A stretch of 64,000 nt of DNA from a virus (lineage: Duplodnaviria; Caudoviricetes): IMG/VR virus record IMGVR_UViG_3300034993_000085, positions 5,479 through 69,478 of that record, one strand, 5' to 3'. Positions within the stretch are counted from its first letter, which is position 1. Each line of letters starts with the position of its first letter. This document shows positions 14,685 to 19,644 of this stretch, piece after piece. Below the pieces are notes generated by a model that saw only the letters and a program-made list of their open reading frames with translations, was not told where the DNA came from and ran no database searches. The position numbers and the translations under genes were made by a program.

Positions 14685-14758
14685 CGCAGAGAGGCATGCC
14701 GCCTAGGGTACTAGGCGGCATGTTAATGCGGCATGCGAGGTCTCAAGCCCTCGCAAAT
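14685..14758 (+). ncRNA. Twister ribozyme R1 (P5-type permutation)
   Basis: CGCA-GAGAG-[13-bp P1]-U|AA-UGCG-GC..P4 with loop UCUCAAGC-AAAU; T1 covaries (GAG/CUC); predicted cut 14724/14725. Confidence 0.88.
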
Positions 14759-14781
14759 TTGACGCATTTGGAGTATTGACT

Positions 14782-14925
14782 ATGGCACTCGGTACACGTC
14801 ACATTCGGCGCAGCGTGTCCGGATCGAAAAACGGATCACGCTACGATCACCGAGCGACTGTGAAAAACGCGGCTCGCAAAGCACGGCGCGAGGATAGCAA
14901 GCGTGAGGTGCGGAGTAATGGGTGA
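14782..14925 (+). CDS. Basic 47-aa peptide
   Basis: Shared RBS motif; MALGTRHIRRSVSGSKNGSRYDHRATVKNAARKARREDSKREVRSNG (hand translated). Confidence 0.7.
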   Translation: MALGTRHIRRSVSGSKNGSRYDHRATVKNAARKARREDSKREVRSNG

Positions 14926-14943
14926 GATGACGCTAGCCTAAAA

Positions 14944-15012
14944 CGCAGAGGGACATGCCACCCAATCCGGGTGGCATGGTAATGCGCGACCCGGCCCCAA
15001 GTCCGGGTAAAT
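14944..15012 (+). ncRNA. Twister ribozyme R2
   Basis: GCA-GAGGG-P1-GGU|AAUGC-GC..CCCGG-CCCCAAGU-CCGGG-UAAAU; cut 14980/14981. Confidence 0.87.
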
Positions 15013-15034
15013 CACACGCATTGGAGTATTGACC

Positions 15035-15307
15035 ATGAACTATCGGATGCTTACGTTTGACGTTCGCAACATGATTGTCAATCGCGTATTTAAGCACCAT
15101 GGGATAGATAGCACTCCGCGAGAAGGCGAGGCACTCTATCCCAGTATGACGATAGAACGCGCTCCAGATGGGCGGCGGATTGTTGTTGCCGTGCAGTATG
15201 CAATCGTCAACGATACCCATGTCGAGGCGTATTACGATTCGGCAGAGGAGGCGGCATTCTGGCTCGCAAATCCGGACATCGAGCACGCGTGGCGCGCTGG
15301 TAGCTAG
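15035..15307 (+). CDS. Hypothetical early protein (90 aa)
   Basis: Shared RBS motif; the stop codon overlaps the first base of the ribozyme. Confidence 0.8.
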   Translation: MNYRMLTFDVRNMIVNRVFKHHGIDSTPREGEALYPSMTIERAPDGRRIVVAVQYAIVNDTHVEAYYDSAEEAAFWLANPDIEHAWRAGS

Positions 15308-15371
15308 CAGAGGGACGCGGCGCCGCAAGGCGCCGTGGTAATGCGCGGCCCGGCCCCAAGCCCGGGTAAAT
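15307..15371 (+). ncRNA. Twister ribozyme R3
   Basis: Same core, P1 capped by GCAA tetraloop; cut 15339/15340; identical to R8. Confidence 0.88.
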
Positions 15372-15395
15372 ACAAAGCGCAGAGGAGTATTGACC

Positions 15396-16193
15396 ATGGC
15401 TATCTCAAGTGCCCCCACCGGGAACCCGCTTGTTCTGAACCGGGATGAGTTGCGTGATTTATTCATAAGTGCACCCGTCATGCAAGGCGAGACCGTGATT
15501 CTTCACGGGCCTCCTGGCACCGGGAAATCGAGCCTCGCGGACGAGCTAGCTCGCCGGACTGGGCGGCCCGTGTTCTGGGTCGCCTGTCATCCTGACGCTA
15601 CGGCAAATGATGTCGTCGGCGGCTGGACTCCCAAGCCGGATGGCTCGGGTGGCTGGCAATTCACGCCCGGTCCGATGCTCATGGCATGGGGCCTGACGGG
15701 AAATCCGGGAATCCTAATCGTGGACGATGTTCACGAAGCAGGCCCAGGAATCCGGGCGGCGCTGTATACAGCGATGAATCGACATTCAGCGCGCTATACA
15801 ACGCCCGATGGCATCACGCACCAGCCGGATTCGAAATACTGGTGCATTGTCACATCGAACGAGGCGCCCGAGGCGCTCCCGTTCCCGATTCTTGACCGTG
15901 GCGCGATTCGCGCTCCGGTTCTTCAGCCGAGTCAGGACATGCTCGATGCCCTGCATCCGGATATCCGAGATTTAGTCGAAATCGACTATGACGGAGCGAC
16001 GGACAATCCGGTCGCGACGTATCGTGAATGGAGCACGATGTCGAAACTGTGGCCGGCCATTGGGCTCGGTCGCGCGATTTTACTGGCTCTCGGGAGTCAG
16101 GCCCGGGCAAAGCGAATGCTCGAAAGCTTAACCAAGATCGGCATTAAGGACGCTGCCGACGCGTACGCACAAGTTGTCGCATCGATGCCATAA
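15396..16193 (+). CDS. MoxR-like AAA+ ATPase
   Basis: Walker A GPPGTGKS, VVGGWTP, FTPGP, Walker B ILIVDDV (DD for DE), TSN, LDR. Confidence 0.85.
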   Translation: MAISSAPTGNPLVLNRDELRDLFISAPVMQGETVILHGPPGTGKSSLADELARRTGRPVFWVACHPDATANDVVGGWTPKPDGSGGWQFTPGPMLMAWGLTGNPGILIVDDVHEAGPGIRAALYTAMNRHSARYTTPDGITHQPDSKYWCIVTSNEAPEALPFPILDRGAIRAPVLQPSQDMLDALHPDIRDLVEIDYDGATDNPVATYREWSTMSKLWPAIGLGRAILLALGSQARAKRMLESLTKIGIKDAADAYAQVVASMP

Positions 16194-16261
16194 GCAGAGG
16201 GACGCGGCGCCAGCAATGGCGCCGTGGTAATGCACGAATCCGGTCCCAAGTCCGGATTAAT
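16194..16261 (+). ncRNA. Twister ribozyme R4
   Basis: T2 covaries (AC/GU); loop UCCCAAGU; cut 16228/16229. Confidence 0.92.
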
Positions 16262-16284
16262 TCACGTGCAGAGGAGTATTGACC

Positions 16285-18236: not shown

Positions 18237-18259
18237 CACAGCGCAGAGGAGTATTGACC

Positions 18260-18469
18260 ATGGTAGTGTGTGATTTCCACGGAAAAGATAGCGCCAATTT
18301 TGTACGCGCTACTATCCGAGTAACATCGATAGTGACCGAGCACAAAACTATCACTGTGGTGAAAGATGCGTGCAAGGAGCACAAGCTCGACGCACTCAAA
18401 TTCGTTACTGAGTTCATGTCGCCCAGGCCGAATAAGCCGGTGAATGTGACCATCGAGGCTATCGACTAG
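18260..18469 (+). CDS. Hypothetical early protein (69 aa)
   Basis: Shared RBS; stop overlaps R7. Confidence 0.75.
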   Translation: MVVCDFHGKDSANFVRATIRVTSIVTEHKTITVVKDACKEHKLDALKFVTEFMSPRPNKPVNVTIEAID

Positions 18470-18534
18470 CAGAGGGACGCGGCGCCGCGAGGCGCCGTGG
18501 TAATGCGCCAGATCGGTCCCAAGTCCGGTCAAAT
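18469..18534 (+). ncRNA. Twister ribozyme R7
   Basis: P1 with GCGA loop; cut 18501/18502. Confidence 0.92.
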
Positions 18535-18557
18535 CACAGCGCAGAGGAGTATTGACC

Positions 18558-18866
18558 ATGGTTACGGATGAGAAGATCATCGACGTTGAAACGGAGATCG
18601 AGATTCGTTACCAGCCAGCCACACCGGAGGGGCTCGGGCTCGATCCAACATCGTACGCTCGCGAGCTATGCGCAAACTTTGACATCGAGTGGATCGCACG
18701 CGTGTCGGAGAAATATCCGGGAGCCGTGAAGCTCGCGGTCGGTGGCAATGGGCTCGGTCCGGGGTATGTCACCTTCGGTCCGTCGCCAAACGGGCTCCGA
18801 GAGGCTTTTCAGGCGTGCGAGGATGTCTACGCCGAGCTAGCGGAACACCCGGAGGTGTGGGCATGA
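18558..18866 (+). CDS. Hypothetical early protein (102 aa)
   Basis: Shared RBS. Confidence 0.75.
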   Translation: MVTDEKIIDVETEIEIRYQPATPEGLGLDPTSYARELCANFDIEWIARVSEKYPGAVKLAVGGNGLGPGYVTFGPSPNGLREAFQACEDVYAELAEHPEVWA

Positions 18867-19021
18867 AAGTCTACATCGTGGAGGAGGGCGAGTATGACGC
18901 GTACGTTATTGGTGTATATTCAACACGTGAGAAGGCTCAAGCAAAGGTCGATGACAGCTACGGTCTTGATCGTGAAATAGTCGAATGGGAGGTCGATAAA
19001 GACCCCGGGCGAACCTATTAG
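18863..19021 (+). CDS. Small phage protein (52 aa, MKVYIVEEGEYD...GVYSTREKA)
   Basis: ATGA overlap with the upstream gene; GGAGG RBS. Confidence 0.75.
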   Translation: MKVYIVEEGEYDAYVIGVYSTREKAQAKVDDSYGLDREIVEWEVDKDPGRTY

Positions 19022-19085
19022 CAGAGGGACGCGGCGCCGCAAGGCGCCGTGGTAATGCGCGGCCCGGCCCCAAGCCCGGGTAAAT
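19021..19085 (+). ncRNA. Twister ribozyme R8
   Basis: Identical to R3; cut 19053/19054. Confidence 0.88.
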
Positions 19086-19109
19086 ACAAAGCGCAGAGGA
19101 GTATTGACC

Positions 19110-19493
19110 ATGCGTATTCGAGGAATTACGCGAGAGCAGGCCGCGCAAGCGGCAGAGCGTGTCGGCGTTGAACTCAACCCAGACACGGACGAAAAGAATG
19201 GTGTGCTACGCACCACGATTAGGCCGGATAGCTCATTGAAGCCAGCGCAGCGAGCGTACACACGGTTCAGCGCGAATCGTGGGCTGGCTCGTCGCCGGGT
19301 CAATGCGGTGTGCTGGCACGGACATCGAGACTGGATGCGCGAGTTATTCCGGATCAATCCTGATGCCGTGATTAGTTCAGCGCTCGCCACATATCGTGGT
19401 GTTCGGGACTTCGATGAAAAATTCTCAGCCACAGCACTGACAAGCGTCGGTCAAGGGCAGACGATGGTCGATCTGTGTGAATGCAATGCCTGA
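19110..19493 (+). CDS. Hypothetical early protein (127 aa, CWHGHRD motif)
   Basis: Shared RBS. Confidence 0.8.
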   Translation: MRIRGITREQAAQAAERVGVELNPDTDEKNGVLRTTIRPDSSLKPAQRAYTRFSANRGLARRRVNAVCWHGHRDWMRELFRINPDAVISSALATYRGVRDFDEKFSATALTSVGQGQTMVDLCECNA

Positions 19494-19578
19494 AAAGCGC
19501 GGGAGAGCGCCGACAACTGACCTATGGTACCTGGGGATCGCCGCACTCGCGGCGATCCTCGCATTCTTACCCTGGTAA
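19486..19578 (+). CDS. 30-aa single-TM peptide
   Basis: MPEKRGRAPTTDLWYLGIAALAAILAFLPW; 8-nt overlap with upstream gene; stop 2 nt before R9. Confidence 0.55.
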   Translation: MPEKRGRAPTTDLWYLGIAALAAILAFLPW

Positions 19579-19579
19579 A

Positions 19580-19644
19580 GCAGAGTGACGCGGCGCCTTC
19601 GGGCGCCGTGGTAATGCGCAGCGCGGTCACAAGCCCGTGCAAAT
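19580..19644 (+). ncRNA. Twister ribozyme R9
   Basis: T1 covaries (GUG/CAC); P1 capped by cUUCGg; cut 19612/19613. Confidence 0.92.

Follow-up and report, generated by a model that had tools for sequence, protein, structure and literature searches.

Clusters of hammerhead ribozymes that flank single genes have been described in prophages, and these ribozymes cleave in vitro as well as in E. coli (Perreault et al., 2011; PMC3088659). In that work it was proposed that long phage transcripts are processed to single-gene messenger RNAs (mRNAs), and the processing idea has been repeated for twister ribozymes in a review (PMC6765202), in which the type-P5 twister class is cited from Roth et al. (2014). 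Here, an array of nine twisters, R1 to R9, is described in a phage of the Caudoviricetes (IMG/VR record IMGVR_UViG_3300034993_000085; 69,478 bases, rated complete by CheckV). The window, i.e., the whole stretch of DNA analyzed, comprises bases 5479–69478 of this record (64,000 nucleotides, nt), and all positions given below are those of the window. The array resembles the prophage hammerhead clusters in that several co-oriented ribozymes lie between small phage genes. It differs from them since the ribozymes are twisters and not hammerheads, since nine instead of two or three are present per operon and since a stop codon, a complementary leader and a start region of identical sequence accompany each ribozyme.

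A second related design is known from synthetic biology. RiboJ and Csy4 are used as engineered operon insulators, which cut near the ribosome-binding site (RBS) and then leave a hairpin that exposes the RBS. The phage modules are similar to these devices with respect to the cut just upstream of the RBS, the standardized 5′ untranslated region and the uncoupling of a cistron from its context. In contrast to RiboJ and Csy4, the element found here is a natural twister, which is present in nine copies together with one start region. Most likely, the nine twisters chop a long operon message into one- or two-gene messages with uniform starts. Each module, consisting of stop codon, twister, leader stem and identical start region, would then represent a natural insulator, a reading to which we assign a probability of roughly two-thirds.

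The twister array and its operon

Rfam searches returned nine matches to Twister-P5 (RF02684), all of them on the + strand between 14685 and 19638 and all full-length (model positions 1–58), with scores of 47.7–58.1 bits in comparison to a gathering score of 37.6. A permissive Rfam rescan of 13200–21000 revealed no additional twister, and Rfam found no further one in the remainder of the 69,478-base phage record. The copies share with the type-P5 class the full-length match above the gathering score, the conserved core and the P1, P2, P4, T1 and T2 pairing. They differ from it in two respects: a P5 stem is not evident, and the downstream leader competes for the P2 strand. For P5, no convincing pairing of the 5′ flank with the 3′ flank was seen in the window twisters. 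A type-P1 reading, in which the leader would be the true P2′, was ruled out since no P1 3′ strand follows the leader. In every copy of the window the ribozyme core is intact and the helices are compensated. The T1 triplets are GAG/CUC in R1, GGG/CCC in R2–R8 and GUG/CAC in R9.

The cut position was assigned from the twister class, for which the site lies between a U and the sequence AAUGC; A(+1) is the first base after the cut. Here, A(+1) is located at 14725, 14981, 15340, 16229, 17699, 18204, 18502, 19054, and 19613. The consecutive predicted cuts delimit units of 256, 359, 889, 1470, 505, 298, 552, and 559 nt (14725–19612), which is exactly the span and the series of sizes that had been given in an initial annotation of this DNA. 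Each of the eight units holds one or two complete open reading frames (ORFs) with a Shine-Dalgarno sequence, again as annotated. The locus thereby has the form of a ribozyme-punctuated operon, with eight units of one or two genes each delimited by nine co-oriented twisters. In six of the nine copies, the stop codon of the preceding gene shares bases with the start of the ribozyme, as in U-AG-CAGAG, or lies directly next to it. The features of the operon are as follows.

14202–14684, + strand: gene 0 (160 aa), with the shared start region at 14190 and no ribozyme upstream; its transcript piece would have the primary 5′ end and would finish in the 5′ half of R1
14685–14752, + strand: R1, Twister-P5, 55.4 bits, cut 14724/14725, T1 GAG/CUC
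14725–14980, + strand: unit 1, 256 nt, with ORF 14782–14925 (47 aa)
14944–15006, + strand: R2, Twister-P5, 47.7 bits, cut 14980/14981
14981–15339, + strand: unit 2, 359 nt, with ORF 15035–15307 (90 aa), whose UAG stop overlaps nt 1–2 of R3
15306–15365, + strand: R3, Twister-P5, 49.3 bits, cut 15339/15340, identical to R8
15340–16228, + strand: unit 3, 889 nt, with ORF 15396–16193 (265 aa), an AAA_5/MoxR-like ATPase
16193–16255, + strand: R4, Twister-P5, 58.1 bits, cut 16228/16229, P2 3′ strand UGCAC and leader GUGCA
16229–17698, + strand: unit 4, 1470 nt, with ORF 16285–17664 (459 aa, no Pfam family)
17663–17725, + strand: R5, Twister-P5, 54.4 bits, cut 17698/17699
17699–18203, + strand: unit 5, 505 nt, with ORFs 17755–17916 (53 aa) and 17929–18171 (80 aa); the latter has the shared start region at 17917 and no ribozyme in front
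18170–18230, + strand: R6, Twister-P5, 49.3 bits, cut 18203/18204
18204–18501, + strand: unit 6, 298 nt, with ORF 18260–18469 (69 aa)
18468–18528, + strand: R7, Twister-P5, 53 bits, cut 18501/18502
18502–19053, + strand: unit 7, 552 nt, with ORFs 18558–18866 (102 aa) and 18863–19021 (52 aa, DUF7336), joined by an ATGA stop/start overlap
19020–19079, + strand: R8, Twister-P5, 49.3 bits, cut 19053/19054
19054–19612, + strand: unit 8, 559 nt, with ORF 19110–19493 (127 aa) and a possible hydrophobic ORF of 30 aa at 19486–19578; the only one of the eight units with T1-incompatible ends (CCC vs. GUG)
19579–19638, + strand: R9, Twister-P5, 52.5 bits, cut 19612/19613, T1 GUG/CAC
19613–20855, + strand: 3′-terminal piece with the 3′ half of R9, leader, shared start region, four ORFs (19668–19805, 19802–19943, 19920–20585 with a weak SprT-like match, and 20601–20792) and the terminator at 20821–20855

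A pattern scan listed no terminator-like site on the + strand within the array and a strong intrinsic terminator of 16 bp at 20821–20855. Therefore, the region from 14202 (gene 0) to this terminator looks, on the sequence level, like a single rightward early-type operon of about 6.7 kb.

Within gene 0, a tandem repeat of the 15-nt unit GCAGCGGCGCCAGTC is present at 14520–14625 (+ strand), which encodes a linker rich in Ala, Pro and Val. In this repeat, contigs from other samples break off or diverge, with loose ends at 14534–14605. A blastn search against deposited phages gave no match for this phage, and for the 459-aa protein (16285–17664) no relative was found among viral contigs.

Leader stem and shared start region

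Every ribozyme of the window is followed by a short leader and then by a 15-nt start region, GGAGTATTGACCATG, which reaches from the Shine-Dalgarno sequence through the ATG. This region is identical at 10 gene starts and occurs as a one-base variant in the R1 copy at 14770. Including the variant, 11 copies are present from 14190 to 19656, two of which (14190 and 17917) have no ribozyme in front. A −35-like TTGACC lies inside the start region.

A perfect complement to the P2 strand of at least 5 nt is found in the leader of all nine copies. In eight of the nine, the stem formed by the P2 strand and the leader is the minimum free energy fold of the 3′ cleavage product, and it ends 2–3 nt before the Shine-Dalgarno sequence. 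Most copies pair as UGCGC:GCGCA, and R4 pairs as UGCAC:GUGCA, i.e., both sides are changed. In R1 and R2 the leader pairs in another register, AAUGCG:CGCAUU, which takes in the extreme 5′ end. According to the predicted folds, the local leader stem has 5–7 bp and a 5′ overhang of only 0–2 nt. For the precursor before cutting, the predicted energies of the nested twister fold and of the leader-stem fold lie within 2.4 kcal/mol of each other, although the pseudoknot energy of the twister fold is not counted by the program. Since both folds are this close in the model, cutting should tip the balance toward the local leader stem.

A single further copy of the start-region motif lies beyond the array, at 8742 on the + strand, and a minus-strand RNA would carry UGGUCAAUACUCC at this place. 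On the minus strand of 8722–8851, TTGATT is followed by 17 nt, TATACT and about 95 nt with a GC stem and a T-run at their end, and the antisense segment lies between the arms. Judging from these motifs, 8722–8851 is a candidate for an antisense RNA directed against all 11 array starts. A perfect 11-bp hairpin at 14119–14145 closely precedes gene 0, and the GGTCA contained in the loop complements part of the start region. In the pattern scan this hairpin is listed as terminator-like on the minus strand.

Twister arrays in other phages

With a narrow twister core pattern, more than 117 stretches of viral contigs were matched, and 50 of those records were examined. Nine of these 50 twister-bearing phage records carry 5–15 co-oriented twisters, with a maximum of 15 per genome (G028). 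For the analysis of covariation, 99 twisters from 11 arrays were aligned using a model built from the nine copies of the window. Here, paired cells amount to 95.7% in comparison to 68.4% in shuffles, and changes on both sides are observed at all 18 pairs, including all 15 nested pairs of P1, P2, and P4. The T1 pseudoknot, in which GxG pairs with Cx′C of the P4 loop, is paired in 100% of the cases, and its middle position displays four pair types. For T2, the one pair tested, the base that follows UGC covaries with the one that follows AAG (A-U 47, G-C 34, and G·U 5 of 90). Compensated variants of the core are present in the arrays L128 (G034:C1:15000-31500), L135 (G011), and L126 (G014), where P2 is GUG/CAC or ACA/UGU and T1 is AGG/CCU, CGG/CCG, GCG/CGC, or GCA/UGC. 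As read from the alignment, the perfect catalytic core together with the compensated helices shows selection on the RNA fold.

The position of the ribozymes relative to the genes was analyzed for 91 twisters of the 11 arrays. In 78 of the 91, an upstream ORF of at least 40 aa ends between −25 and +3 nt from the ribozyme, and in 48 of those 78 the stop codon overlaps or abuts it. The most common placement is an overlap with bases 1–2 of the ribozyme (UAG, its AG starting AGCAGAG; 29 cases), followed by abutting stop codons (14 cases). This placement hints at a coupling of translation termination to ribozyme unfolding or product release. A Shine-Dalgarno sequence and a start codon are present at most 100 nt away in 86 of the 91 (median gap 28 nt); the start regions are uniform within each array and different between arrays. 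In these phage genomes, the layout of stop codon, twister, and start is thus general among the arrays as far as can be read from their DNA. A leader complement of at least 5 nt is present in 33% of the array twisters vs. 12–14% in controls, and one of at least 6 nt in 19% vs. 2%.

It is conceivable that the cassettes of about 95 nt act mainly at the DNA level, namely as sites of homologous recombination at which small accessory genes are shuffled, acquired and lost, with the ribozyme hitch-hiking or serving as a plug-and-play part. In line with this, R3 (15306–15398) is identical to R8 (19020–19112) over about 93 nt that span the ribozyme, the leader and the start region, and R6 differs little from R7, which suggests gene conversion of the cassette or a recent duplication. 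Furthermore, similar variants adjoin within arrays, and assemblies break at the cassettes. Hitch-hiking does not fit the perfect catalytic core and the compensated helices in every copy, since these point to selection on the RNA fold. The region 13900–20000 was traced to 19 sequencing runs, all of them DNA runs from sediments, freshwater or groundwater, and to no RNA run. In four other sediment runs, the DNA contigs match the window letter for letter and in the same order; they show no alternative joints and break at the repeats. This uniform order argues against shuffling as well, and we therefore regard a role mainly in recombination as very unlikely.

Proposed fates of the operon message

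Returning to the insulator, the following course of events would be expected. The twister would fold and cut during transcription. The upstream message would keep a tail of 34–40 nt, i.e., the GC-rich hairpin P1, whose terminal GU would bear a 2′,3′-cyclic phosphate. The downstream message would begin with 5′-OH-AAUGC, and its P2 strand would pair with the leader complement. The resulting 5′-terminal stem would enclose P4 and stop 2–3 nt before a free Shine-Dalgarno sequence. Finally, ten pieces with one to two genes each would be obtained, which would share leader and start site, carry structured ends and be expressed independently of their neighbors. The sequence itself shows that the ribozymes are present, where they lie and how the leader pairs; we infer cleavage in vivo, protection of the ends and a benefit to the phage.

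The same ends might also shorten the life of the mRNA. Here, the 5′-OH ends would be open to a host 5′ exonuclease and the protection by the terminator would be lost, which would result in a fast shut-off of early genes, and a trans-acting antisense RNA may add to this. A precedent is glmS, where cleavage is followed by degradation by cellular RNases (PMC6765202). The array genes are also small and of early type, and the candidate antisense RNA at 8722–8851 would be directed against the shared start region. Nevertheless, a strong P1 hairpin is present at the end of each product, and the base-paired 5′ stem with its overhang of 0–2 nt looks protective rather than exposed. A shut-off function is therefore considered unlikely.

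Several points weigh against the insulator. The promoter of the operon was not located in a consensus scan, and cleavage in vivo is assumed from the twister class. Whether 5′-OH and cyclic-phosphate ends are stabilizing or destabilizing depends on the host RNases; Collins et al. are said to have found in 2007 that RNase J1 degrades the 5′-OH product of glmS. Furthermore, the leader complement is confined to some arrays and absent from several. Since it is not universal, it cannot, on the present sequences, be the core function of twister arrays.

In the initial annotation, a different fate had been put forward for the units, namely circular mRNAs. Here, the two ribozyme halves at the ends of a unit (the 3′ half from ribozyme n, the 5′ half from ribozyme n+1) would re-associate in cis, and the host RtcB would seal a circular, exonuclease-resistant and translatable mRNA, or would re-order the units. 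Instead of RtcB, the reverse reaction of the ribozyme itself might be considered for the sealing. Ligation is not a new idea for phage ribozyme clusters, since “spliced or circular RNA products” were already raised in 2011; Perreault et al. sought both for the hammerhead clusters and detected neither (PMC3088659). In a literature search, no paper was found that reports circular bacterial mRNAs from twister arrays.

The nearest natural analogs of this idea are the circles of viroids, satellites and retrozymes, in which a unit between two ribozyme cuts is sealed by the host tRNA ligase (PMC6765202; PMC7761336). These examples speak for the circular fate, since host ligases do circularize ribozyme-cut units there (PMC6765202), and unit-length RNAs with split ribozyme halves at their ends are expected in both cases. 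However, those circles are eukaryotic and mostly non-coding replicons, whose rod folds silence the ribozyme, whereas the units described here would be bacterial mRNAs under translation.

A likeness to the engineered Tornado system, which uses two twisters and RtcB, had been drawn as well. In Tornado, the ribozymes are cut away from the product and designed complementary stems hold the ends. The likeness holds for the end chemistry, i.e., a twister-flanked RNA with a 5′-OH and a 2′,3′-cyclic phosphate, and is otherwise loose, because here ribozyme parts of about 28 nt and 34–40 nt would stay on the ends of the product and the pairing from end to end comprises only 3–4 bp of P2 and 3 bp of T1. 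Furthermore, since both ribozyme halves are kept, sealing would rebuild an active ribozyme, and the junction, a complete twister, should cut again. The leader stem could in principle stop this re-cutting. By class chemistry, both ends of all eight units would indeed carry the substrate pair of RtcB, as had been stated. This is true of any RNA between two self-cleaving ribozymes and does not represent specific evidence of ligation.

A further point for circles is the compatibility of the unit ends. The chimeric P2 is complementary at 3/3 positions throughout, and the chimeric T1 at 3/3 in units 1–7 (in unit 1 via a G·U pair) and at 2/3 in unit 8, so that seven of the eight units are complementary in both; the R8–R9 unit had correctly been named as the exception. 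However, this compatibility arises because the ribozymes are near-identical. Among nine arrays, all 85 scorable ribozymes are self-compatible in P2 and T1, and 63 of 76 units are compatible. In one array, P2 helices of the forms GCA/UGC and GUG/CAC alternate, and in another three of four units are incompatible. The variants are compensated inside each ribozyme (85/85) and not across the unit (13 of 76 incompatible); as judged from these arrays, it is the individual ribozymes, and not the unit ends, that bear signs of selection. The compatibility of neighbors is slightly above that of a random order (63 vs. 59.1 ± 1.65, P ~0.02), which would fit the circular fate. This excess was not read as selection since local duplication gives the same signal.

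The folding of the units points in the same direction. Their 5′ end would be taken by the local leader stem of 5–7 bp. In whole-unit ensembles, the probability of the chimeric P2 is at most 0.16 in all eight units and at most 0.01 in five, and the leader stem prevails in units 1 and 4; this partition function ignores pseudoknots and ribosomes and is weak evidence, which nonetheless agrees with the rest. Since the stop codon overlaps or abuts the ribozyme, and thereby lies on or next to the P2′/T1 strand, terminating ribosomes would keep unfolding the half at the 3′ end.

The absence of RtcB from the window, as initially annotated, extends to the whole phage genome, and RtcB was also not found in the 50 other twister phage records, among them 19 with a completeness of at least 90%. 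Searches for the RNA_ligase, 2H/LigT, and RtcA families gave no match in this genome. The phage does encode Ro60 (24167–25942, + strand; TROVE 3.9e-43, vWA_Ro60 6.4e-63). Ro60 often accompanies rtcB in bacterial RNA-repair operons, and its presence would therefore speak for RNA sealing. However, none of the 50 other records with twisters contains TROVE, which rules out Ro60 as a general partner of twister arrays, and no close relative of this Ro60 was found in the genome collection. The Ro60 gene is preceded by a tRNA-like element at 23841–23917 (+ strand; Rfam tRNA, 45.6 bits), which was not called by ARAGORN. In front of this element, a match to RF01656 is located at 23697–23781 (+ strand; 37.1 bits, below the cut-off of 38), a nematode stem-bulge/Y-RNA-like family.

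Taken together, the anatomy given in the initial annotation and its fallback, a tuning of stability per gene, stand. The re-formation of P2 and T1 in cis, which was to bring the ends together, is not supported: the compatibility of unit ends is not conserved, the leader stem is found in nine of nine copies, the chimeric P2 is improbable and a stop codon lies at the 5′ half. With ligase genes not accompanying the arrays, circular mRNAs are not supported, though not refuted, and we see only a very slight chance for them. Slighter still is the chance of a more specific version, in which a host RtcB, induced by the many cyclic-phosphate ends, or the twister reverse reaction would convert some units to translatable circular mRNAs, with the leader stem as a switch against re-cutting. 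If this were true, it would be the first natural circular mRNA from ribozyme cutting in a system of bacterium and phage, and the Ro60/Y-RNA module encoded by the phage might act on these RNA ends as well.

What ribozyme clusters do in phage operons has been an open question since 2011, and the value of this locus is that of a clean test bed rather than of a new phenomenon. It represents an unusually tidy case with nine near-identical twisters, exactly placed cut sites, a start region shared by 11 genes, a compensated leader stem and a candidate antisense RNA. If the modules are indeed insulators, phages would have evolved a design for insulating the genes of an operon that synthetic biologists later built independently.

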